This document shows positions 7,626-45,720 of a stretch of DNA of 64,000 nt, one piece after another. The translations under genes were made by a program, and so were the position numbers. Each line of letters opens with the position of its first letter. The first letter of the stretch is position 1. Below the pieces are notes generated by a model. It made no database searches, had not been told where the DNA came from, and saw nothing but the letters and a program-made list of their open reading frames with translations. This stretch comes from Escherichia coli (lineage in GTDB: Bacteria > Pseudomonadota > Gammaproteobacteria > Enterobacterales > Enterobacteriaceae): assembly GCF_001677475.2 (NCBI RefSeq), contig NZ_CP015229.1. One strand, written 5' to 3'.

Positions 7626-7640
7626 TGGCACGCAATCTGC
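7626..7640 (+). promoter_or_regulatory. Sigma54 (-24/-12) promoter of norVW
   Basis: TGGCAC-gcaat-CTGC about 50 nt upstream of norV ATG, downstream of the NorR sites. Confidence 0.8.
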
Positions 7641-7688
7641 AATTAACAAGACATCTTTTTAGAACACGCTGAATAAATTGAGGTTGCT

Positions 7689-13319: not shown

Positions 13320-13423
13320 CAAATTCTCCAGCAATAACAGTTAATGCGCCGATACATTCACAAATCATGCCAGTTTTTAATACACTGTTATTTAAGGAAA
13401 TTAATTTCTGTAATGCAGGAAAA

Positions 13424-13460
13424 ATGATGTCATCGACACTAGTGACGATGACATGTGATG
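13424..13460. promoter_or_regulatory. FhlA-UAS-like motif upstream of hydN-hypF
   Basis: aatgatgtcatcgacactagtgacgatgacatgtgatgaca shares the TGTCAT...TCGACA core with the two hyc/hyp UAS copies in this window. Confidence 0.5.
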
Positions 13461-17718: not shown

Positions 17719-17741
17719 CTGGAGTTTGGCATCAGTCAAAA

Positions 17742-18161
17742 TCAAAGAAACCATTCCGGCTTAACGCCAAATCGGGCTGAAAGTGCCTTAATATGGGATA
17801 TTGTCAGGGATCGTTGCCCAGACAAAATCTGACTGACCAGGGATTTAGAGCCGATTTCGTTCTTCAAATCCGCGTAGGTCAGATTATGTTGATCAATCAG
17901 CGTACGAAGTAACGCCACGCCAACCGGCATTGCTGCAACGGCTTTGTCGAACTCTGCAAACTTTTCGTTATTGTTTTCATATTCTGCAATGCGGCTCGCC
18001 AGAAAGTCGATAAGTGGATTGGTGTCATCTTCTTCAATCAAATATTCGACCAGTTCCAGTGCTTCACGATAATCATCTTCTGAGTCACTGCCTCCCAGAA
18101 AGGGGACTGCATTGACCAGTTCTCTTGTTGCTTTAACAGCGCGTGCAGCATTAGCAGTCAT
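17742..18161 (-). CDS. HigA-like antitoxin / XRE-family HTH protein (no intact partner toxin)
   Basis: 139 aa ORF with ATG at 18159-18161; C-terminal HTH IGSKSLVSQILSGQRSLTISHIKALSARFGV and overall resemblance to E. coli HigA as recalled. Confidence 0.75.
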   Translation of the reverse strand: MTANAARAVKATRELVNAVPFLGGSDSEDDYREALELVEYLIEEDDTNPLIDFLASRIAEYENNNEKFAEFDKAVAAMPVGVALLRTLIDQHNLTYADLKNEIGSKSLVSQILSGQRSLTISHIKALSARFGVKPEWFL

Positions 18162-18396
18162 TCTTGGTTCTCTCTGTAGTATCGTGTCAGACGCCCACTT
18201 TTCTAAAATGCCAGTTTTGATCGGTATAATAAGGCATGGTCAGGAGAGGTTTCAGCGCCCGCTTTTGTGCGTATTCGCTGTCACTCATCGGCAGATATTC
18301 GGTAAAGCTGGTGGCCTACGCAGGAAGCACTAAGCTCAATAAAAAAGCGCACATCCCTGTCCTGATTTTCAATTCCCTGAATTCCTTAATGAAGAA

Positions 18397-23238: not shown

Positions 23239-25065
23239 TCAGGCTCCTCGTGAAACAATAATCACCACCAGTACCGCCAGTTCAACCAGCGCCATCCGGC
23301 GGAACAGCAACGCACTCCCCTCGCACTGCCAGCCCGGTACCAGCGACACCGGATTCAGCCATTTGCGCAGTTTCAGCACCGGCGCAAACGCCTGTTTCAC
23401 CGGCATGGCAAAACCGTGAGCAGTAATCACCATTGATTTTTCATGGTCGTAGCCGCACACCCAGGCCGCGCCGCGGGAACGCGACGGCAAACGATCGCCT
23501 TTGCAAATCGCCATAATGATGAATGGCAGCAGCGGGCAGGCAATCAGCAGCAACGTGATCATGGGTTGAGAAACGGTGGTGTTAGCAGGCTCCAGCGGCA
23601 GAGGTACAGCAGCAGAGAGCATCGGCAGCAGCCACGGCGCAGCAACACCGCCAATTACGCAGCAAATCGCCAGTGCCACAACGCTTACGCTCATCAGGAG
23701 CGGCGCACTGGTGGCGTTTTCGGCTTCTTTGGTACGCGGCGCGCCGAGGAACGTGACGCCATAGACTTTCGCCATACACATCACTGCCAGCGCACCGGTA
23801 ATTGCCAGCCCCACAGCGAGCAGCGGCCCCAGCAGACGGGCAACAAACGCGCCACTATTGCTCAGTTTGAAGAAGGATTGATAGATAACCCATTCACCGG
23901 CAAAACCGTTCAACGGCGGCAGCGCAGCCATTGCCATCAGCCCGACTAACATAGCGATGGAGATAACCGGCATTTTCTTGCCAATACCACCGAGTTTTTC
24001 GATATCGCGATGACCGGTACGGAACCAGACGCTCCCCGCCCCGAGGAACAGTACGCTTTTGAACAGGCTATGGTTAAGCAGATGGTACAGGCCACCGACC
24101 AGGCCAAGAGCAATCAGCGCCGGTTGTTCGAGCGCGATACCCGTTACGCCAGCCCCCAGCCCCAGCAGGATGATGCCGATATTTTCCAGTGTGTGGTAAG
24201 CCAGCAGACGCTGGATGTTGTGCTCCATCAGCGCATACAAACCACCGACGAACGCGGTGATCATGCCGAGCACCAGCAGCGCAATTCCCCACCACAGCGG
24301 CGCGTTACCGCCCAGCAGAGACAGGGTTAAAATGCCCAGCAGGCCGATTTTCATTACCACCGTGGAAAACAGCGCGGCAGCTGGCGCAGAGGCGTTAGCA
24401 TGTGCCTGCGGCACCCAGCCGTGCAGCGGAATAATCCCGGCCAGCAGGCCAAAGCCAATCACACCGAGCAGCCAGATATCGGAACCGAGCGGCAGCTGTT
24501 GCATACGCATATCCAGCAGGCGCAGATCCAGCGTGCCGTAACGCTGCCACAGCAGCCAGCAAGCAATCGCCAGCAGCAGAGTGCCAAGACGCCCCAGCGC
24601 AAACCACAGTTTGCCCTCTTTGCTGTTGCTGGTGAGGAACACCGCACACAAGGCCATGACTTCGGCCATTACCACGAACATGCCGAGGTTGCTGGCAATG
24701 ACGGCGCAGACGGCGGCAGCCATCAACATATTGATCTGCAAGCCGTTGCACTTCACCTGCGCGTGGCGATGCCAGTCAATGTTGTAGAGGCTGACAAACA
24801 GACCGCACAGACCGAGCGTAATCAGCCAAATCGCGTTAAGCGGAGAAATTTGCACATCGTAGCTTACCAGCGACAGCGCACCGCTCACGCCAACCGCGCC
24901 AGTCAGCACAGTAAAGCCCGCGGCTGCCGTATACAGGCTACCCACCGCGCCGCCAATTCCGGCTATCCAGCCGCTTAGCGCCTTTTGAAAAGAAAAGAGA
25001 AATGCCAGAACAGCGGCGGCGGCAAACCACGCCACGCCGCTATTGATCAGGGAAATTGCGCTCAT
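23239..25065 (-). CDS. hycC: Formate hydrogenlyase membrane subunit (NuoL/antiporter-like)
   Basis: 608 aa polytopic membrane ORF. Confidence 0.95.
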   Translation of the reverse strand: MSAISLINSGVAWFAAAAVLAFLFSFQKALSGWIAGIGGAVGSLYTAAAGFTVLTGAVGVSGALSLVSYDVQISPLNAIWLITLGLCGLFVSLYNIDWHRHAQVKCNGLQINMLMAAAVCAVIASNLGMFVVMAEVMALCAVFLTSNSKEGKLWFALGRLGTLLLAIACWLLWQRYGTLDLRLLDMRMQQLPLGSDIWLLGVIGFGLLAGIIPLHGWVPQAHANASAPAAALFSTVVMKIGLLGILTLSLLGGNAPLWWGIALLVLGMITAFVGGLYALMEHNIQRLLAYHTLENIGIILLGLGAGVTGIALEQPALIALGLVGGLYHLLNHSLFKSVLFLGAGSVWFRTGHRDIEKLGGIGKKMPVISIAMLVGLMAMAALPPLNGFAGEWVIYQSFFKLSNSGAFVARLLGPLLAVGLAITGALAVMCMAKVYGVTFLGAPRTKEAENATSAPLLMSVSVVALAICCVIGGVAAPWLLPMLSAAVPLPLEPANTTVSQPMITLLLIACPLLPFIIMAICKGDRLPSRSRGAAWVCGYDHEKSMVITAHGFAMPVKQAFAPVLKLRKWLNPVSLVPGWQCEGSALLFRRMALVELAVLVVIIVSRGA

Positions 25066-25673
25066 TTAGCCTCTCCACTTTGAGCCTGCTGAAACAAGGT
25101 GAGATCGCCAAAGTCCGTGTTAAAGGTCAGCTCACGCTTACGTTTGCTGACGCGGGCGATATCGGTGTTATCCACCAGATGCAGGGCTTTAGTCGGGCAC
25201 ATCCGCACGCAGGCCGGACCTTGTTCATCAAAACTACAAAGGTCACATTTGACGGCGATCGCGCGAATACCTGGCACCCAGTCAAGCAGCGTACTGATAC
25301 GCGCCGGAGCAGGCGGTGCCGGTGGCGCTTTCGGGGTATTGGCATTTGCAGGAATATCCAGCGGACGGCTGCCGGAAAATTCAATTGCGCCAAACGGGCA
25401 GGCGATGCCGCACAGTTTGCAGCTTACGCACAGGCTTTCATTCAACTGCACGGCCCCATTAACGCGGGTGATGGCGTTAACCGGGCAGACCACCGCGCAG
25501 GGTGCATCTTCACAATGGTGACAGAGCTGCGGTGCAGATTCTTTTTCATTTAGCATCACTCTCAGGCGCGGCATTGATTGCAGGCCGTGCTGGCGATGCG
25601 TCTCTGAACAGGCAGCCTCACAAGTGTGGCAGCCGATACAGAGCGTGGAGTCAGCAATTACAAAACGATTCAC
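25062..25673 (-). CDS. hycB: Formate hydrogenlyase iron-sulfur subunit (4x[4Fe-4S])
   Basis: 203 aa ORF with repeated CxxCxxCxxxCP motifs. Confidence 0.95.
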   Translation of the reverse strand: MNRFVIADSTLCIGCHTCEAACSETHRQHGLQSMPRLRVMLNEKESAPQLCHHCEDAPCAVVCPVNAITRVNGAVQLNESLCVSCKLCGIACPFGAIEFSGSRPLDIPANANTPKAPPAPPAPARISTLLDWVPGIRAIAVKCDLCSFDEQGPACVRMCPTKALHLVDNTDIARVSKRKRELTFNTDFGDLTLFQQAQSGEAK

Positions 25674-25691
25674 CAGGCATTCCTCAGGTGA

Positions 25692-25748
25692 TTGTCATTT
25701 TTGACGAAAACATGCCGATGAAATGTCATTTTCGACACTCATCGACAC
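25692..25748. promoter_or_regulatory. FhlA UAS copy in the hycA-hycB intergenic region
   Basis: tgtcatttttgacg ... tgtcattttcgacactcatcgacacg; same core as the hycA-hypA UAS. Confidence 0.7.
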
Positions 25749-25797
25749 GCCCATCCCCAAACAGGCGTAACGCCTGCAAAACGGGCAAAGCCTCAGC

Positions 25798-26259
25798 TCA
25801 TGCTGCCGGGCTTTGTCCCTTTACCAGTTGGCTTAAATTCACCGGCACATTGTTTTCAATGGCGGTATATAAGCTGTCGTAAACGCCAGCGATTTTTTCG
25901 AGATAGTGTTCCAGAACCTGTTCGCGATCGCGGATGTTGACCTTGCCATCAATCATGCCGTCAATGCTCAGTTGCGCCTGCGCAATCCGCTGTTTGTCTT
26001 CGCCATCTTTTGTTTCGACGTAATACTCGATGGTGTGGCTGTTAAAGCCATCCGCCAGGGTGACGTAAATGCGAAAATGTTCAAAAAGGACGAAACAGAG
26101 TTCTTTGTCCGGCGCGCAGCTCATGGCGTGATGCAGGCGCGCTTTCGATAACGTGATCCCCTGAACCAGCGAATTGCAGTAGATGTGCCACTGGTCCTGT
26201 AGGCGACGATGCCGCTGTGCGATGTAATCGGCTTTCTCGCTTATTTCCCAAATAGTCAT
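25798..26259 (-). CDS. hycA: Formate hydrogenlyase regulatory protein (FhlA antagonist)
   Basis: 153 aa ORF, first gene of the hyc operon, divergent from hypA. Confidence 0.93.
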   Translation of the reverse strand: MTIWEISEKADYIAQRHRRLQDQWHIYCNSLVQGITLSKARLHHAMSCAPDKELCFVLFEHFRIYVTLADGFNSHTIEYYVETKDGEDKQRIAQAQLSIDGMIDGKVNIRDREQVLEHYLEKIAGVYDSLYTAIENNVPVNLSQLVKGQSPAA

Positions 26260-26296
26260 TGTCAGGTTACCCGTTTAACAGAGATGCCAGTTTTAA

Positions 26297-26311
26297 GCAT
26301 TTTCTGTGCCA
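26297..26311 (-). promoter_or_regulatory. Sigma54 (-24/-12) promoter of the hyc operon
   Basis: Minus strand reads TGGCAC-agaaa-ATGC, about 40 nt upstream of hycA ATG. Confidence 0.75.
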
Positions 26312-26367
26312 ACTTTTAATTTATTGTTATTAAAGCGATTTTTAAGCTAAAGATGAATTTCGTCGCC

Positions 26368-26399
26368 GTGTCGACGTGTCATTTCGACATCATCGACAT
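26368..26399. promoter_or_regulatory. FhlA UAS between divergent hyc and hyp promoters
   Basis: gtgtcgacgtgtcatttcgacatcatcgacat with repeated TCGACA half-sites, centred between the two sigma54 promoters. Confidence 0.75.
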
Positions 26400-26424
26400 T
26401 ATTCACCGCAGGGATAATCAACAC

Positions 26425-26439
26425 TGGCACAATTATTGC
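26425..26439 (+). promoter_or_regulatory. Sigma54 (-24/-12) promoter of the hyp operon
   Basis: TGGCAC-aatta-TTGC about 30 nt upstream of hypA ATG. Confidence 0.8.
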
Positions 26440-26470
26440 TTGTAGCTGGCAATAGTTAATGGGAGGCGAT

Positions 26471-26821
26471 ATGCACGAAATAACCCTCTGCCAACGGGCA
26501 CTGGAATTGATCGAACAGCAGGCCGCAAAACACGGCGCAAAACGCGTAACTGGGGTCTGGCTCAAAATTGGCGCATTTTCTTGTGTCGAAACCAGCTCTC
26601 TTGCCTTTTGTTTTGATCTGGTTTGCCGCGGCAGCCTGGCGGAAGGTTGTAAACTGCACCTCGAAGAACAAGAGGCCGAATGCTGGTGTGAAACATGCCA
26701 ACAGTATGTGACGCTACTAACCCAGCGCGTCCGCCGCTGTCCACAGTGTCATGGTGACATGCTACAGATTGTGGCAGACGACGGTTTACAGATTCGGCGG
26801 ATAGAAATAGACCAGGAGTGA
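26471..26821 (+). CDS. hypA: Hydrogenase nickel-insertion zinc metallochaperone
   Basis: Start at ATG 26471 after GGGAGG; MHEITLCQRALELIEQ..., 116 aa with C-terminal CxxC...CxxC. Confidence 0.95.
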   Translation: MHEITLCQRALELIEQQAAKHGAKRVTGVWLKIGAFSCVETSSLAFCFDLVCRGSLAEGCKLHLEEQEAECWCETCQQYVTLLTQRVRRCPQCHGDMLQIVADDGLQIRRIEIDQE

Positions 26822-30161: not shown

Positions 30162-32240
30162 ATGTCATATACACCGATGAGTGATCTCGGACAGCAAGGG
30201 TTGTTCGACATCACTCGGACACTATTGCAGCAGCCCGATCTGGCCTCGCTGTGTGAGGCTCTTTCGCAACTGGTAAAGCGTTCTGCGCTCGCCGACAACG
30301 CGGCTATTGTGTTGTGGCAAGCGCAGACTCAACGTGCGTCTTATTACGCGTCGCGTGAAAAAGACACCCCCATTAAATATGAAGACGAAACTGTTCTGGC
30401 ACACGGTCCGGTACGCAGCATTTTGTCGCGCCCTGATACGCTGCATTGCAGTTACGAAGAATTTTGTGAAACCTGGCCGCAGCTGGCCGCAGGTGGGCTA
30501 TACCCAAAATTTGCTCACTATTGTCTGATGCCACTGGCGGCGGAAGGGCATATTTTTGGTGGCTGTGAATTTATTCGTTATGACGATCGCCCCTGGAGCG
30601 AAAAAGAGTTCAATCGTCTGCAAACATTTACGCAGATCGTTTCTGTCGTCACCGAACAAATCCAGAGTCGCGTCGTTAACAATGTTGACTATGAGTTGTT
30701 ATGCCGGGAACGCGATAACTTCCGCATCCTGGTCGCCATCACCAACGCGGTGCTTTCCCGCCTGGATATGGACGAACTGGTCAGCGAAGTCGCCAAAGAA
30801 ATCCATTACTATTTCGACATTGATGATATCAGCATCGTCTTACGCAGCCACCGTAAAAACAAACTCAACATCTACTCCACTCACTATCTTGATAAACAGC
30901 ATCCCGCCCACGAACAGAGCGAAGTCGATGAAGCCGGAACCCTCACCGAACGCGTCTTCAAAAGTAAAGAGATGCTGTTGATTAATCTCCACGAGCGGGA
31001 CGATTTAGCCCCCTATGAACGTATGTTGTTCGACACTTGGGGCAACCAGATTCAAACCTTGTGCCTGTTACCGCTGATGTCTGGCGACACCATGCTGGGC
31101 GTGCTAAAACTGGCGCAATGCGAAGAGAAAGTATTTACCACTACCAATCTGAATTTACTGCGCCAGATTGCCGAACGTGTGGCAATCGCTGTCGATAACG
31201 CCCTCGCCTATCAGGAAATTCATCGTCTGAAAGAACGGCTGGTTGATGAAAACCTCGCCCTGACCGAGCAGCTCAACAATGTTGATAGTGAATTTGGCGA
31301 GATTATTGGCCGCAGCGAAGCCATGTACAGCGTACTTAAACAAGTTGAAATGGTGGCGCAAAGTGACAGTACCGTTCTGATCCTCGGTGAAACTGGCACG
31401 GGTAAAGAGCTGATTGCCCGTGCTATCCATAATCTCAGTGGGCGTAATAATCGCCGCATGGTCAAAATGAACTGCGCGGCGATGCCTGCCGGATTGCTGG
31501 AGAGTGATCTGTTTGGTCATGAGCGTGGGGCTTTTACCGGTGCCAGCGCCCAGCGCATTGGTCGTTTTGAACTGGCGGATAAAAGCTCCCTGTTCCTCGA
31601 CGAAGTGGGCGATATGCCACTGGAGTTACAGCCGAAGTTGCTGCGTGTATTACAGGAACAGGAGTTTGAACGTCTTGGCAGCAACAAAATCATTCAGACG
31701 GACGTACGTCTAATCGCCGCAACTAACCGCGATCTGAAAAAAATGGTCGCCGACCGAGAGTTCCGTAGCGATCTCTATTACCGCCTGAACGTATTCCCGA
31801 TTCACCTGCCGCCACTACGCGAGCGTCCGGAAGATATTCCGCTGCTGGCGAAAGCCTTTACCTTCAAAATTGCCCGCCGACTGGGGCGCAATATCGACAG
31901 CATTCCTGCCGAGACACTGCGCATATTGAGCAACATGGAATGGCCGGGTAACGTACGCGAACTGGAAAATGTCATTGAGCGCGCGGTATTGCTAACACGC
32001 GGCAACGTGCTGCAGCTGTCATTGCCAGATATTGCTTTACCGGAGCCTGAAACGCCGCCTGCCGCAACGGTTGTCGCTCAGGAGGGCGAAGATGAATATC
32101 AGTTGATTGTTCGCGTGCTGAAAGAAACAAACGGCGTGGTTGCCGGGCCTAAAGGCGCTGCGCAACGTCTGGGGCTGAAACGCACGACTCTGCTGTCACG
32201 GATGAAGCGACTGGGAATTGATAAATCGGCATTGATTTAA
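30162..32240 (+). CDS. fhlA: Formate hydrogenlyase transcriptional activator, sigma54-dependent
   Basis: Start at ATG 30162 (MSYTPMSDLGQQGLFD) gives 692 aa; two GAF-like N-terminal domains, AAA+ core with GETGTGKE and GAFTGA, C-terminal HTH. Confidence 0.95.
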   Translation: MSYTPMSDLGQQGLFDITRTLLQQPDLASLCEALSQLVKRSALADNAAIVLWQAQTQRASYYASREKDTPIKYEDETVLAHGPVRSILSRPDTLHCSYEEFCETWPQLAAGGLYPKFAHYCLMPLAAEGHIFGGCEFIRYDDRPWSEKEFNRLQTFTQIVSVVTEQIQSRVVNNVDYELLCRERDNFRILVAITNAVLSRLDMDELVSEVAKEIHYYFDIDDISIVLRSHRKNKLNIYSTHYLDKQHPAHEQSEVDEAGTLTERVFKSKEMLLINLHERDDLAPYERMLFDTWGNQIQTLCLLPLMSGDTMLGVLKLAQCEEKVFTTTNLNLLRQIAERVAIAVDNALAYQEIHRLKERLVDENLALTEQLNNVDSEFGEIIGRSEAMYSVLKQVEMVAQSDSTVLILGETGTGKELIARAIHNLSGRNNRRMVKMNCAAMPAGLLESDLFGHERGAFTGASAQRIGRFELADKSSLFLDEVGDMPLELQPKLLRVLQEQEFERLGSNKIIQTDVRLIAATNRDLKKMVADREFRSDLYYRLNVFPIHLPPLRERPEDIPLLAKAFTFKIARRLGRNIDSIPAETLRILSNMEWPGNVRELENVIERAVLLTRGNVLQLSLPDIALPEPETPPAATVVAQEGEDEYQLIVRVLKETNGVVAGPKGAAQRLGLKRTTLLSRMKRLGIDKSALI

Positions 32241-32284
32241 CAGATGTGGTTATACTCGATCAACATTCAATGAAAGGAGGCAGT

Positions 32285-32713
32285 ATGGCAGTTTCAGCAA
32301 GAAATCAATTAACCGGAACAGTTAGCGCAGTAGCAATGGGCGCGGTGAATGACGAAGTAGAACTGACGCTGGCAGGTGGTGCAAAGCTGGTGGCAATTGT
32401 GACTCACAGCAGCCAGCAGGCTCTGGGTCTGGCGAAAGGGAAAGAAGCGATTGCCCTGATTAAAGCCCCGTGGGTAACGCTGGCAACGGAAGACTGTGGA
32501 CTGAAATTCTCTGCTCGCAACCAGTTTGCTGGCAGCGTGTCGACAATCACCGAAGGCGCAGTGAACGCCACTGTCCATATCAAAACGGATGCGGGTTTTG
32601 AAATTGTGGCAGTGGTAACAAATGAAAGTCAGGATGAAATGAAACTCACCACTGGCTCACGCGTTATTGCATTGATCAAAGCATCAGCCATCCTGATTGC
32701 CACCAAAGCGTAA
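32285..32713 (+). CDS. Tandem Mop-domain (TOBE) molybdate/tungstate-binding protein (molbindin)
   Basis: ATG at 32285 preceded by GGAGG at 32275-32279; 142 aa made of two ~70 aa repeats each starting with the Mop signature SARNQ(L/F)xGxV. The track start at 32246 is an upstream extension. Confidence 0.8.
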   Translation: MAVSARNQLTGTVSAVAMGAVNDEVELTLAGGAKLVAIVTHSSQQALGLAKGKEAIALIKAPWVTLATEDCGLKFSARNQFAGSVSTITEGAVNATVHIKTDAGFEIVAVVTNESQDEMKLTTGSRVIALIKASAILIATKA

Positions 32714-42764: not shown

Positions 42765-42798
42765 AAAAGGTCCGATGAGCATCGGACCTTTTATTTAG
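42765..42798. terminator. Bidirectional rho-independent terminator (ygbN + / ecdD-like -)
   Basis: aaaaag gtccgat gagc atcggac cttttattt: hairpin flanked by an A-run and a T-run. Confidence 0.75.
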
Positions 42799-43031
42799 CG
42801 CTTATCTGCCGCCAGCAGCGGCGGGATGCTCGGCACCATTGGCGCGTCATCAATATCTTTTTGTGTCATACGGAACGCTTGTGGGTAATGTTCACGGCTG
42901 GTGCGGCGTAGCGGTTCGGTATCGCGCCAGGTATAAAGGCAATGCTGGCACTGATATACCGTCCAGACATCTTTCACCGGCGATTTCGCCATCACTTCAA
43001 TCTGTTCATCGGCACAACGTGGACAAATCAT
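42795..43031 (-). CDS. ecdD: Small zinc-ribbon subunit of a UbiD-type phenolic acid decarboxylase (BsdD/VdcD-like)
   Basis: 78 aa ORF with CPRC ... CQHC pairs, immediately downstream of the UbiD-like gene on the same strand. Confidence 0.7.
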   Translation of the reverse strand: MICPRCADEQIEVMAKSPVKDVWTVYQCQHCLYTWRDTEPLRRTSREHYPQAFRMTQKDIDDAPMVPSIPPLLAADKR

Positions 43032-43041
43032 CTTCTTCTCC

Positions 43042-44469
43042 TTATTGACGCGCGGCCAGCATAGCGGTCAGTTTTTCAGCCCAGGCTTTGGTTTCCGGCA
43101 AATCCACCACCGGCTGGCTGTAGTGACCACGGTTGTCCGGGGCGACAGGCGTGGTGGCGTCGATAATCAGCTTGTCGGTGATGCCTGCCGGGCTTGAGCC
43201 AGGGTCGAGTTCCAGCACGGACATATTTGGTAGTTGCACCAAGTCGCCCGCCGGGTTCACTTTCGAGGAGAGCGCCCACATCACCTGCGGCAGGTTGAAC
43301 GGGTCAACGTCTTCATCGACCATAATCACCATCTTCACGTAGCCCAGACCGTGCGGCGTGGTCATCGCACGCAGGCCCACCGCGCGGGCAAAGCCGCCGT
43401 AGCGTTTTTTGGTGGAGATAATCGCCAGCAGGCCGTGGGTGTACATGGCGTTTACCGCCTGCACTTCCGGGAACTCGGCTTTCAGTTGTTGATACAGCGG
43501 TACGCAGGTGGCTGGCCCCATCAGGTAGTCGATTTCGGTCCACGGCATGCCGAGGTACAGCGATTCGAAAATCGGCCTGGTGCGGTAAGAGACTTTATCG
43601 ATGCGCACCACGGTCATGTTACGCCCGCCGGAGTAGTGTCCGGTAAACTCACCGAACGGCCCTTCGATTTCGCGTTTACGGCTTTCGATGACCCCTTCGA
43701 GGATCACTTCTGAACCCCACGGCACATCAAAACCGGTCAGCGGGGCGGTAGCGATCGGGTATGGGCTTTCACGCAGCGCGCCTGCCATTTCATACTCAGA
43801 CTGATCGTATTTCAGTGGCGTAGCCCCCATCAGCGTGATGATCGGATCGTTACCGAGCGTGATCGCAATCGGTAGATCTTCACCGCGCTCTTCTGCTTTA
43901 TGTAGATGCAGGGCGATATCGTGCATCGGCACCGGTTGTAGGCCGAGCTTTCGCTTGCCCTTCACTTCCATGCGGTAGATGCCGACGTTCTGCTTGCCGA
44001 AGTTATCCGGGTCGAGCGGATCGCGGGAAACCACGCAGGCTTTGTCGAGATAGAAACCGCCATCGCCATCGTTTAAACGAAACAGCGGCAGGATATCGAA
44101 CAGGTTAATCTCGTCGCTATCAACGGTGTTCTGCGCCCAGGCAGGATTGGCGCGGCGCTCCGGGGCAATCGGGAAGTTATCCCAGCGGCGAATAAACTCA
44201 TCAATCTGTTTTTTAACCGGAGTGTTTGCCGGCAGGCCGAGGGAAATCGCATGGTTCTGCCAGGAACCGATGGTATTCATCGCCACGCGGGCATCGGTAA
44301 AGCCGCGAATATTGTCAAACCACAGCGCCGGTGCGCCGTCGCCGATACGCCCGGTGGCGTTAGCTGCTGCTGCCAGATCCGGCTCAGCGTTCACCTCTTC
44401 GCTGATTTTCAGTAACTGGCCGTGGTCATCAAGCGCCTGTAAAAAGCTGCGTAAATCATCAAATGCCAT
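43042..44469 (-). CDS. ecdC: UbiD-family (prFMN-dependent) aromatic acid decarboxylase, subunit C type
   Basis: 475 aa ORF with UbiD-like core (GPFGEFTGHYSG); ATG at 44467-44469 overlaps the upstream gene's stop. Confidence 0.85.
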   Translation of the reverse strand: MAFDDLRSFLQALDDHGQLLKISEEVNAEPDLAAAANATGRIGDGAPALWFDNIRGFTDARVAMNTIGSWQNHAISLGLPANTPVKKQIDEFIRRWDNFPIAPERRANPAWAQNTVDSDEINLFDILPLFRLNDGDGGFYLDKACVVSRDPLDPDNFGKQNVGIYRMEVKGKRKLGLQPVPMHDIALHLHKAEERGEDLPIAITLGNDPIITLMGATPLKYDQSEYEMAGALRESPYPIATAPLTGFDVPWGSEVILEGVIESRKREIEGPFGEFTGHYSGGRNMTVVRIDKVSYRTRPIFESLYLGMPWTEIDYLMGPATCVPLYQQLKAEFPEVQAVNAMYTHGLLAIISTKKRYGGFARAVGLRAMTTPHGLGYVKMVIMVDEDVDPFNLPQVMWALSSKVNPAGDLVQLPNMSVLELDPGSSPAGITDKLIIDATTPVAPDNRGHYSQPVVDLPETKAWAEKLTAMLAARQ

Positions 44470-45062
44470 TATTTATTCTCCTGAGAAAAATTCCGGGCCT
44501 GCGGCAATCCTTGCCAGCGCCTGGCGTGGGGATGTTCGAGGCCAAATTGATCCAGCACGCGGGCTACCACATGGTGGACAATGTCATCTACCGTTTCGGG
44601 ATGGTTATAAAAGGCAGGCATCGGCGGCACCATCGCCACGCCCATGCGTGAAAGTGCGAGCATATTTTCGAGATGGATGGTGCTAAGCGGCATTTCACGC
44701 GGCACCAGCACCAGTTTGCGGCCTTCTTTGAGCACGACGTCCGCCGCGCGCCCTACCAGGCCATCGGCGTAACCAGCGCGGATACCGGAGAGCGTTTTCA
44801 TACTGCACGGAATAACGATCATGCCGTCGGTACGAAAAGAACCGGATGAGATGATCGCCGCCTGATCCGCCGGGTTATGGCTGAAGTCTGCGAGGGCAGC
44901 AACATCGCGAGCGCTGTAAGGCGTTTCCAGTTCAATGGTGGTTTTCGCCCACTTCGACATCACCAGATGAGTCTCGACATTCGGCATCTCCCGCAGCGCT
45001 TGCAGTAATGCCACACCAAGAGGCGCACCGGTAGCCCCTGTCATCCCGACGATCAGTTTCAT
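44469..45062 (-). CDS. ecdB: UbiX-family flavin prenyltransferase (decarboxylase subunit B type)
   Basis: 197 aa ORF starting MKLIVGMTGATGAPLGVALLQAL, flavoprotein fold like UbiX/Pad1. Confidence 0.85.
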   Translation of the reverse strand: MKLIVGMTGATGAPLGVALLQALREMPNVETHLVMSKWAKTTIELETPYSARDVAALADFSHNPADQAAIISSGSFRTDGMIVIPCSMKTLSGIRAGYADGLVGRAADVVLKEGRKLVLVPREMPLSTIHLENMLALSRMGVAMVPPMPAFYNHPETVDDIVHHVVARVLDQFGLEHPHARRWQGLPQARNFSQENK

Positions 45063-45078
45063 TGCTTATTCTCTTAAT

Positions 45079-45092
45079 TGTTCGTATACGAA
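45079..45092. promoter_or_regulatory. Perfect 14 bp palindrome, candidate MarR-type operator in the divergent ecdB/marR-like promoter region
   Basis: gttcgtatacgaac read directly, 16 nt upstream of the ecdB start codon. Confidence 0.55.
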
Positions 45093-45208
45093 CGTTATTA
45101 TTAACATACTCCTTCATTTCCACAGCGGCAAGGATTGAAAAGTAACAACATCTTCTTCGTCACTAAAAAACCGCTATGATAGCGACAGAGAATTAGCCCG
45201 GAGTTTAC

Positions 45209-45616
45209 ATGGCGTTACGAAATAAAGCGTTCCATCAGTTACGACAGCTTTTTCAGCAGCACACGGCTCGCTGGCAGCACGAGTTACCTGACCTGACCAA
45301 ACCACAGTATGCGGTGATGCGCGCCATTGCTGATAAGCCTGGTATCGAACAGGTGGCACTGATAGAAGCAGCAGTCAGCACCAAAGCAACGTTGGCAGAA
45401 ATGTTGGCAAGAATGGAGAATCGTGGCTTAGTCAGACGTGAACATGATGCCGCTGACAAGCGGCGTCGCTTTGTCTGGCTGACTGCCGAAGGAGAAAAGG
45501 TACTTGCTGCGGCGATACCGATTGGTGACAGTGTGGATGAGGAATTTTTGGGGCGTTTGAGTGCAGAAGAGAAGGAGCTGTTTATGCAGCTGGTGCGCAA
45601 GATGATGAGCACATAG
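45209..45616 (+). CDS. MarR-family transcriptional regulator
   Basis: 135 aa ORF with ATG at 45209 after GGAG; winged-helix region LTKPQYAVMRAIADKPGIEQVALIEAAVSTKATLAEMLARMENRGLVRR; divergent from the decarboxylase genes. Confidence 0.8.
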   Translation: MALRNKAFHQLRQLFQQHTARWQHELPDLTKPQYAVMRAIADKPGIEQVALIEAAVSTKATLAEMLARMENRGLVRREHDAADKRRRFVWLTAEGEKVLAAAIPIGDSVDEEFLGRLSAEEKELFMQLVRKMMST

Positions 45617-45625
45617 AATGCTGAT

Positions 45626-45660
45626 TGCCGGGTAGGACGCTGACGTGTCTTATCCAGGCG
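45626..45660. repeat. REP-like element
   Basis: gccgggtaggacgctgacgtgtcttatccaggc between the marR-like gene and the rpoS terminator. Confidence 0.6.
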
Positions 45661-45684
45661 ACAAAAACACATGCATCCCAAACA

Positions 45685-45720
45685 AAAGAAAAAAGGCCAG
45701 CCTCGCTTGAGACTGGCCTT
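45685..45720 (-). terminator. rpoS rho-independent terminator
   Basis: Minus strand reads ggccag-tctcaagcgagg-ctggcc followed by a T-run (A-run on plus at 45685-45694). Confidence 0.8.

Follow-up and report, generated by a model that had tools for sequence, protein, structure and literature searches.

Divergent sigma-54 promoters and predicted FhlA half-site clusters in the hycB–hypA region of an Escherichia coli chromosome

The control region described here lies in a 64,000-nt stretch of chromosomal DNA (hereafter called the window) whose gene order, norRVW, hypF-hydN, ascGFB, hycIHGFEDCBA, hypABCDE-fhlA, and mutS, is collinear with an E. coli record. On the minus strand are hycB (25062–25673) and the first gene of the hyc operon, hycA (25798–26259), an open reading frame for the formate hydrogenlyase regulator that is annotated as hycA in matching E. 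coli records, while hypA (26471–26821) is read from the plus strand. By these gene coordinates, positions 25674–26470 cover hycA together with the spacers that separate it from hycB and from hypA, and nothing else. The cognate enhancer-binding activator is encoded in cis, 3.7 kb downstream of the control region, by the last gene of the hyp-fhlA unit, i.e., fhlA (30162–32240, plus strand; placed via the collinear E. coli record with an offset of +5399), whose ORF translation begins ...MSYTPMSDLGQQ.

Of 5426 complete E. coli genomes, 5425 match the segment 25400–26700 over its full length in megablast and have hycB, hycA, and hypA annotated beneath the match, and the chromosome of the window is of the E. 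coli type. From hycB to hypA, it is 99.3% identical to K-12, with six differences over 901 nt that leave all conserved motif bases intact. Locus, genes, promoter motifs, and UAS sequences are the same as in K-12. The hyc promoter differs by a single base of its N5 spacer (AGAAA instead of AAAAA), and two further substitutions both fall on non-conserved spacer positions. We are highly confident that this is the control region of the E. coli formate regulon with its divergent sigma-54 promoters and FhlA sites, a feature that is already well known. The first-pass annotation had correctly recognized this regulatory architecture from the raw sequence, and the match to the established formate regulon that it had claimed is borne out by the identity to K-12, the ChIP-seq sites, and the phylogenetic footprint presented below. 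The sigma-54 promoters and FhlA UAS of the K-12 hyc–hyp region are reportedly the subject of Lutz et al. 1990, Schlensog et al. 1994, Hopper et al. 1994, and Leonhartsberger et al. 2000. The K-12 hyc–hyp formate regulon is also covered in PMC4987338 and PMC3844500.

Exact matches to a -24/-12 pattern of the TGGCAC-N5-TTGC type are found on both strands of the hycA–hypA spacer, TGGCACAGAAAATGC at 26311..26297 (minus) and TGGCACAATTATTGC at 26425–26439 (plus). They mark a predicted hyc promoter, P_hyc, on the minus strand (TTGGCACAGAAAATGCT, 26296–26312, with the -24 GG and -12 GC; predicted start at ca. 26285) and a predicted hyp promoter, P_hyp, on the plus strand (CTGGCACAATTATTGCT, 26424–26440; predicted start at ca. 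26451). A loose form of the -24/-12 pattern is not significant on its own in 64 kb (two matches found against 0.63 expected, with 11 of 100 shuffles reaching two), and we therefore scanned the window with an RpoN matrix built from 186 sites (taken from PMC7658346). Among the 128,000 positions scored, hyp ranks first (19.0 bits), followed by the norV promoter (16.3 bits) and hyc (15.6 bits), with four matches of at least 15 bits against 1.2 expected.

These promoters can be directly compared with published occupancy data. In K-12, sigma-54 ChIP-seq sites have been reported at hycA (TTGGCACAAAAAATGCT, OS27) and hypA (OS28, the strongest peak listed with an FAT of 201), and both are flagged as experimentally confirmed promoters (PMC4591121). 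The hyp promoter of the window is identical to OS28 at 17/17 positions and the hyc promoter to OS27 at 16/17, and both are listed as “confirmed” in EcoCyc. Following the rule of the same study that transcription starts 19 nt downstream of the motif centre (PMC4591121), starts are predicted at 26285 (minus) and 26451 (plus), 166 bp apart, at distances of 26 nt to hycA and 20 nt to hypA that equal the published values. Furthermore, a gSELEX peak of the RpoN holoenzyme falls into the hycA–hypA spacer (PMC8743547), and in Salmonella the orthologous sites are positive in sigma-54 ChIP-chip with sigma-54-dependent operons that are upregulated 26-fold and 5.6-fold (PMC3844500). The assignment of P_hyc and P_hyp as sigma-54 promoters is therefore supported, with occupancy in the present strain expected by analogy to K-12 and Salmonella.

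Two further candidate features were considered at these promoters and rejected. A third match inside hycA (TGGCACATCTACTGCA, 26190..26175, 15.0 bits) owes its sequence to the conserved codons W-H/R/Q-x-Y-C-N and loses the -12 GC wherever the cysteine is encoded by TGT (11 of 42 sequences); it is absent from the ChIP-seq tables and supplements examined, and about one such match per window is expected by chance. Similarly, a likeness between P_hyc and P_hyp that spans 27 nt up to a CTGGCA near +1 is not conserved beyond the Escherichia group.

Two copies of an FhlA UAS accompany the promoters in the same orientation, one in each spacer. In plus-strand reading, they are TGTCATTTTCGACACTCATCGACA at 25724–25747 in the hycA–hycB spacer (site A; TGTCGATGAGTGTCGAAAATGACA in the hyc sense, minus strand) and TGTCATTTCGACATCATCGACA at 26377–26398 in the hycA–hypA spacer, the latter being part of a longer intergenic UAS at 26369–26400 (TGTCGATGATGTCGAAATGACACGTCGACA in the hyc sense, minus strand). 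An alignment of the two copies matches at 22 of 24 positions with two 1-nt gaps and has a local score of 36 that was reached by none of 500 shuffled spacers. The centre of the intergenic UAS lies ca. 102 bp upstream of the predicted hyc start and ca. 64 bp upstream of the predicted hyp start. Both copies can be read as arrays of TGWCR half-sites with dyad symmetry, i.e., two direct boxes followed by two inverted ones, as CGTGTCGATGAGTGTC-GAAAAT-GACATTTCATCGGCATG in the hycA–hycB spacer and TGTCGATGATGTC-GAAAT-GACACGTCGACA in the intergenic array. The composite nature of the two copies had gone unmentioned in the first-pass annotation. The FhlA consensus CATTTCGTACGAAATG given by a secondary source (PMC4987338) is the same TGWCR element in another reading frame.

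To rank the sites we used a published 14-nt FhlA matrix (TGWC-N6-GWCA; 13 characterized E. coli sites, maximum 17.6 bits; PMC7658346). Site A is the best match of the window (17.5 bits, 25724–25737) and the intergenic UAS is second (16.1 bits, 26385–26398), and these are the only two matches of at least 16 bits, a number that none of 200 simulated windows contained. These scores are partly circular because both sites were very probably among those used to build the matrix. We therefore made a cross-genus footprint for which 80 loci encoding HycA relatives were collected with one genome per species, and both spacers were aligned from 42 of them representing ca. 18 genera.

In the resulting alignment, 40 of 70 columns within four elements of the hycA–hypA spacer, namely both -24/-12 elements, the UAS core, and an IHF-like box, are at least 90% conserved compared to 24 of 142 elsewhere, and the conserved columns outside the elements mostly belong to ribosome-binding regions. 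At both promoters, TGGCA and TGC are invariant in all 43 aligned sequences, and at hyp this extends to TGGCA...TATTGC (43/43). The intergenic UAS retains a core of ATG(T/A)CGA-N3-TG(A/T)CGAAATGACA(C/T)GTC, with 14 of 27 core columns at least 90% conserved among 20 genus-level representatives. At site A, the TGTCGA...TGTCGA boxes are nearly invariant in the orthologs, as is the wider ortholog consensus TGTCGA-N4-TGTCGAAA(A)TGACA. The earlier reading of -24/-12 elements for hyc on the minus strand and for hyp on the plus strand is thus correct in position, strand, and sequence, with RpoN matrix, ChIP-seq, and conservation in agreement, and the two UAS copies that it had described hold up equally by their 22/24 match (0/500 shuffles), their top two ranks with the FhlA matrix, and their conservation across ca. 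18 genera. FhlA and formate dependence in K-12 are documented in the literature (PMC4987338, PMC3844500), from which FhlA occupancy and a response to formate would be expected at these predicted sites as well.

It could be argued that all these motifs are chance matches without function, given that the loose -24/-12 pattern falls short of significance in 64 kb and that one RpoN match of at least 15 bits is expected per window anyway. However, the matrix ranks, the conservation in 42 loci, the fact that the promoters coincide with ChIP-seq sites, and the 22/24 match between the UAS copies are all contrary to this idea, which is scarcely credible and already refuted by the conservation together with the published occupancy data.

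Next to site A, the hycA–hycB spacer contains a second FhlA box, site B (25693–25709, minus strand), that had been absent from the first-pass annotation. It consists of CGTCAAAAATGACA (25706..25693) within the block TTTCGTCAAAAATGAC (25709..25694) and scores 12.2 bits with the FhlA matrix (25693–25706). By eye, the site-B block TTTTCGTCAAAAATG agrees with the 16-nt FhlA consensus at 11 of 16 positions. This 16-nt block (25694–25709) is identical in 43/43 aligned sequences, and it is still invariant in Kosakonia, where an insertion of 15–17 nt increases the distance to the hycB start from 36 to 51–53 nt. Because it remains invariant when displaced from the hycB ribosome-binding site, the block likely acts as DNA rather than as an element of translation initiation. 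The two sites together form a bipartite cluster that lies ca. 715–750 bp upstream of P_hyp (-715/-751) and at ca. +550 to +585 relative to the hyc start. The scan with the RpoN matrix found no sigma-54-like site downstream of the cluster in hycB, and the cluster must consequently act at a distance. An internal hycB promoter was also considered and rejected, with no sigma-54-like site downstream of the cluster and with matches to sigma-70 and terminator consensus sequences at chance level.

Between the intergenic UAS and the hyc promoter, 5 nt upstream of the -24 element, lies an IHF-like box (TAACAATAAATTA, 26317–26329, minus strand) with one mismatch to the consensus WATCAANNNNTTR. At an offset of 5–6 nt, 32 of the 43 sequences match this consensus, and 16 do so without a mismatch. 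IHF reportedly binds at hyc (Schlensog et al. 1994, Hopper et al. 1994, and the Böck/Sawers reviews), for which the box described here is a predicted site.

The alignment also reveals how the elements are spaced. In 30 of 43 sequences, 113–115 nt separate the two -24 elements, while the remaining sequences have 111, 101–102, or 91 nt, and a shift of the UAS by +11/12 nt relative to one promoter corresponds to -8/9 nt relative to the other. Similarly, sites A and B are separated by either 37–38 or 25–29 nt. Steps of about one helical turn like these are the pattern that would be expected for proteins facing each other across a bend, though they trace back to few independent indel events.

Which cluster serves which promoter is less straightforward. 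Taking a UAS position ca. 100 bp upstream as a yardstick, the sites at hyc (-102) and hydN (-92) fit, while the candidates for hyp, at -64 or -715/-751, are atypical. We take the hycA–hycB cluster to be the hyp enhancer, an assignment reportedly made in Schlensog et al. 1994, in Hopper et al. 1994, and in the Böck/Sawers reviews. In the open full-text literature, we found no paper describing the hycA–hycB site. Alternatively, the intergenic cluster might activate both promoters, leaving the hycA–hycB cluster as a reservoir of FhlA or as a downstream enhancer for P_hyc. The intergenic cluster sits between the two promoters (-102 and -64), only ca. 64 bp from the hyp start, the distance between the -24 elements is held at 113–115 nt in 30/43 sequences even though the UAS shifts by 11–12 nt in some genera, and the hycA–hycB cluster is closer to P_hyc than to P_hyp. 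However, established accounts attribute the activation of hyp to the hycA–hycB site, -64 would be an uncommonly short distance for an activator that works by looping unless a bend lay in between, and the IHF-like box is present on the hyc side only. We therefore consider this arrangement unlikely and favour the hycA–hycB cluster as the hyp enhancer.

With this assignment, sigma-54 RNA polymerase would sit in closed complexes at both divergent promoters while FhlA would bind the clusters of TGWCR half-sites. The intergenic FhlA, positioned ca. 100 bp upstream of P_hyc, would be brought to the polymerase by an IHF-type bend, and the hycA–hycB cluster with its sites A and B would act on P_hyp by DNA looping. 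Formate-bound FhlA would then hydrolyse ATP so that the complexes open, and HycA, as the first product of the hyc operon, would counteract FhlA in a negative feedback.

Much of this proposed layout is shared with other enhancer-dependent systems such as NtrC-glnAp2, NifA-nifH, or norR-norV (the latter at 7626–7641 of the window), which likewise have activator sites ca. 100 bp ahead of a -24/-12 promoter and a bend site separating the two. However, these systems use other activators with other recognition sequences than FhlA, and the hyc–hyp region is unlike them in that one of its two FhlA clusters lies ca. 0.7 kb away inside a neighbouring operon. Another comparison within the window is hydN–hypF, where a sigma-54 promoter (CTGGCATGATTTGTGAA, 13357–13373, minus strand; 11.0 bits with the RpoN matrix) is identical to a K-12 site found by sigma-54 ChIP-seq (OS26; PMC4591121) and has a weak -12 element with GTGA instead of TTGC. 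As at hyc, this promoter is preceded by a cluster of half-sites centred at ca. -92 from the predicted hydN start and by an AT-rich IHF-like tract adjoining the -24 element. The -24 element and this tract are similar enough in the two promoters to align at 23 of 29 positions (26306–26335 at hyc, 13367–13396 at hydN), a likeness that had not been pointed out before in the annotation of this window.

The half-site cluster of hydN itself (13426–13451, minus strand) is a 26-nt near-palindrome, TGTCATCGTCACTAGTGTCGATGACA, with an inner spacing of 1 nt compared to 3–4 nt in the hyc sites. It had previously been described as a third copy of the UAS motif. What stands of this claim is a 9-mer, TGTCGATGA, that the hydN upstream region has in common with both hyc copies. 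Beyond this 9-mer, the hydN region gave no alignment with the hyc copies over the full motif (28/500 and 7/500 shuffles did as well, the better of the two alignments covering the promoter/IHF region and not the UAS), and the cluster scores below 7 bits with the FhlA matrix. The hydN “copy” thus appears, judged by its sequence, to be a different arrangement of the same half-sites rather than a third copy. A high density of half-sites is what the three regions have in common: when TGWCR/YGWCA is counted in stretches of 45 nt, no other place in the window exceeds hydN (5), hycA–hycB (4), and hyc–hyp (4), which take the first three ranks, though counts of 4–5 arise somewhere in 43% of simulated windows.

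The suggestion that the three instances could be used to derive a site model consequently failed: MAFFT aligned them out of register, the only ungapped core was TGTCGATGA, and half of its matches in the window are coding. This 9-mer occurs six times in 64 kb against 0.49 expected, including three occurrences in coding DNA (593, 19015, and 34614), and a matrix made from the three copies was therefore rejected as an unspecific FhlA detector. FhlA sites vary in how they array a 5-nt half-site, and three copies are therefore too few for a model. The same lesson is taught by the K-12 fdhF UAS, which we included as an outside control. It also has five TGWCR/YGWCA half-sites ca. 100 bp upstream of a sigma-54 promoter and shares TTTCGTCA and CGTCAAAA-TGAC with site B, but its half-sites are otherwise arranged and it reaches no more than 8.2 bits with the 14-nt matrix. 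The published 13-site FhlA matrix thus misses even fdhF and hydN (8.2 and <7 bits), and we rejected it as a general detector, for which half-site density performs better.

The hycA–hycB spacer is transcribed as part of the hyc operon, and the dyad symmetry of site A extends into an imperfect palindrome (25711–25749, minus strand; CGTGTCGATGAGTGTC-GAAAAT-GACATTTCATCGGCATG followed by TTTTCGTC) that could form a hairpin in hyc mRNA. The spacer might also, or even mainly, be read as RNA, with the hairpin and a UUUU serving as a partial terminator, processing site, or stabiliser that sets how strongly hycA is expressed relative to hycB-I. Read in the hyc sense, RNA of the whole 141-nt spacer folds far better than shuffled sequences (z = -4.2), and a 46-nt stretch around site A reaches -23.5 kcal/mol compared to -11.2 kcal/mol for the antisense (z = -6.6). 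Of the two strands, the sense RNA is the more stable one in 16 of 18 genus-level groups, compared to 6 of 18 when the intergenic UAS, which is paralogous but not transcribed, is folded in the same way. When the E. coli hairpin is imposed on the alignment, four pairs show changes on both sides, and G·U exceeds A·C by 41:10.

However, hairpins arise for free from palindromic protein sites, and the asymmetry largely vanishes when normalised for composition (mean z of -3.7 for sense and -3.0 for antisense) and is clear only in the Escherichia, Salmonella, and Citrobacter amalonaticus lineages. Applied to the ortholog alignment, RNAalifold found neither a conserved hairpin nor covariation, and the right arm is missing in Enterobacter, Lelliottia, and Huaxiibacter. 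No Rfam family matched in the window. The supplementary files examined of one 3'-end mapping study, reportedly done with aerobic cultures, list no 3' end near hycA. The evidence for selection on the hycA–hycB hairpin at the RNA level is thus weak, and we regard a role as RNA as quite unlikely compared with the role of sites A and B as a DNA enhancer. If it were true, an RNA element located after the anti-activator gene hycA and ahead of the structural genes hycB-I could attenuate, process, or stabilise the mRNA, and a single sequence would serve hyp as a DNA enhancer and hyc as an RNA element, which would make a modest example of such dual use.

Taken as a whole, the hyc–hyp control region is a classical enhancer-dependent sigma-54 system that carries little weight as a discovery. 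What the cross-genus footprint adds is a sharper view than a single genome can give, i.e., of a two-part enhancer in the hycA–hycB spacer that includes an invariant 16-mer, of an IHF-like box in fixed position, and of spacing that changes in steps of a helical turn.

The sigma-54 promoters of hyc and hydN resemble each other beyond their -24/-12 elements. Positions 26306-26335 of hyc and 13367-13396 of hydN are identical at 23 of 29 positions spanning the -24 element and the adjoining AT-rich tract, with CTTWAATAACA..ATTAAAA.TGGCA as the common sequence. From this identity, the sequence suggests an IHF-type site directly upstream of the -24 element that is common to both promoters.

The upstream activating sequence (UAS) for FhlA in the hycA–hypA spacer (26369..26400) differs in the Klebsiella/Raoultella members of the orthologous HycA-encoding loci (L036, L039, L043, L058, and L063), where a 12-nt insertion within the UAS creates a near-perfect inverted repeat, ATGTCGATGAC...GTCATCGACAT. 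The word TGTCGATGACA of this repeat is also found in the E. coli half-site cluster upstream of hydN (13426..13451, minus strand). A deletion of 9-10 nt further along these spacers offsets the insertion, so that the promoter-to-promoter distance is kept at 113-114 nt.

On the other side of hycA, FhlA site A (25724..25747, minus strand) is enclosed by a 39-nt imperfect palindrome (25711-25749, minus strand) with TTTT after it (25710..25707), which in the hyc mRNA would form a stable hairpin followed by a short U run. The raw folding energy favors the sense strand, and this bias becomes much smaller once composition is corrected for; the hairpin may be under selection at the RNA level. Right after the hycA stop codon, only Escherichia, Salmonella, and Citrobacter have a segment of ca. 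60 nt (25750-25797, minus strand) that holds a GC-rich hairpin, CAGGCG-UUA-CGCCUG, and then UUUGGGG. Salmonella and Citrobacter carry inverted repeats of the type TCGTGACG...CGTCACGA, similar to FhlA half-sites, in place of this GC-rich hairpin. In genera beyond these three, site A follows the hycA stop codon almost directly. The 5' leader of hycA, TCTCTGTTAAACGGGTAACCTGACA-ATG (26260-26290, minus strand), is well conserved between genera and shows no obvious Shine-Dalgarno sequence.

Among other sigma-54-like sites, the second rank in the window under the published 186-site RpoN matrix is held by TGGCACGCAATCTGCA (7626-7641, plus strand), a match to the norV sigma-54 promoter published as OS25. 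The fourth-ranking site, the strong sigma-54-like match TGGCACATCTACTGCA (26175-26190, minus strand; 15.0 bits), lies within hycA and in its orientation. We rejected it as a promoter because it overlaps the conserved hycA codons W-H/R/Q-x-Y-C-N, lacks the -12 GC in 11 of the 42 aligned orthologs (the Cys codon being TGT there), and has no entry in the K-12 ChIP-seq tables; it is probably a by-product of the coding sequence.

Several segments elsewhere set the window apart from strain A34. Between ascB and hycI, ca. 640 nt (17736-18375) missing from K-12 and A34 include a 139-aa ORF (17742-18161, minus strand), whose predicted product carries an HTH_3 domain at its C terminus (Pfam E = 2e-9) and looks like an antitoxin. 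A 2.9-kb insertion relative to A34 between ygbN and rpoS (42796-45690), which is the known variable mutS–rpoS region, carries genes for a UbiD-family decarboxylase (43042-44469, minus strand), a flavoprotein/UbiX-like protein (44469-45062, minus strand), and a MarR-family protein (45209-45616, plus strand). Directly downstream of fhlA, a 155-aa protein with two TOBE domains (32246-32713, plus strand; Pfam E = 1e-34) is encoded on a segment missing from A34; the K-12 stretch compared ends short of it. The two domains are of the molybdate-binding type, and the placement of this gene after fhlA is curious because hyc expression depends on molybdate.
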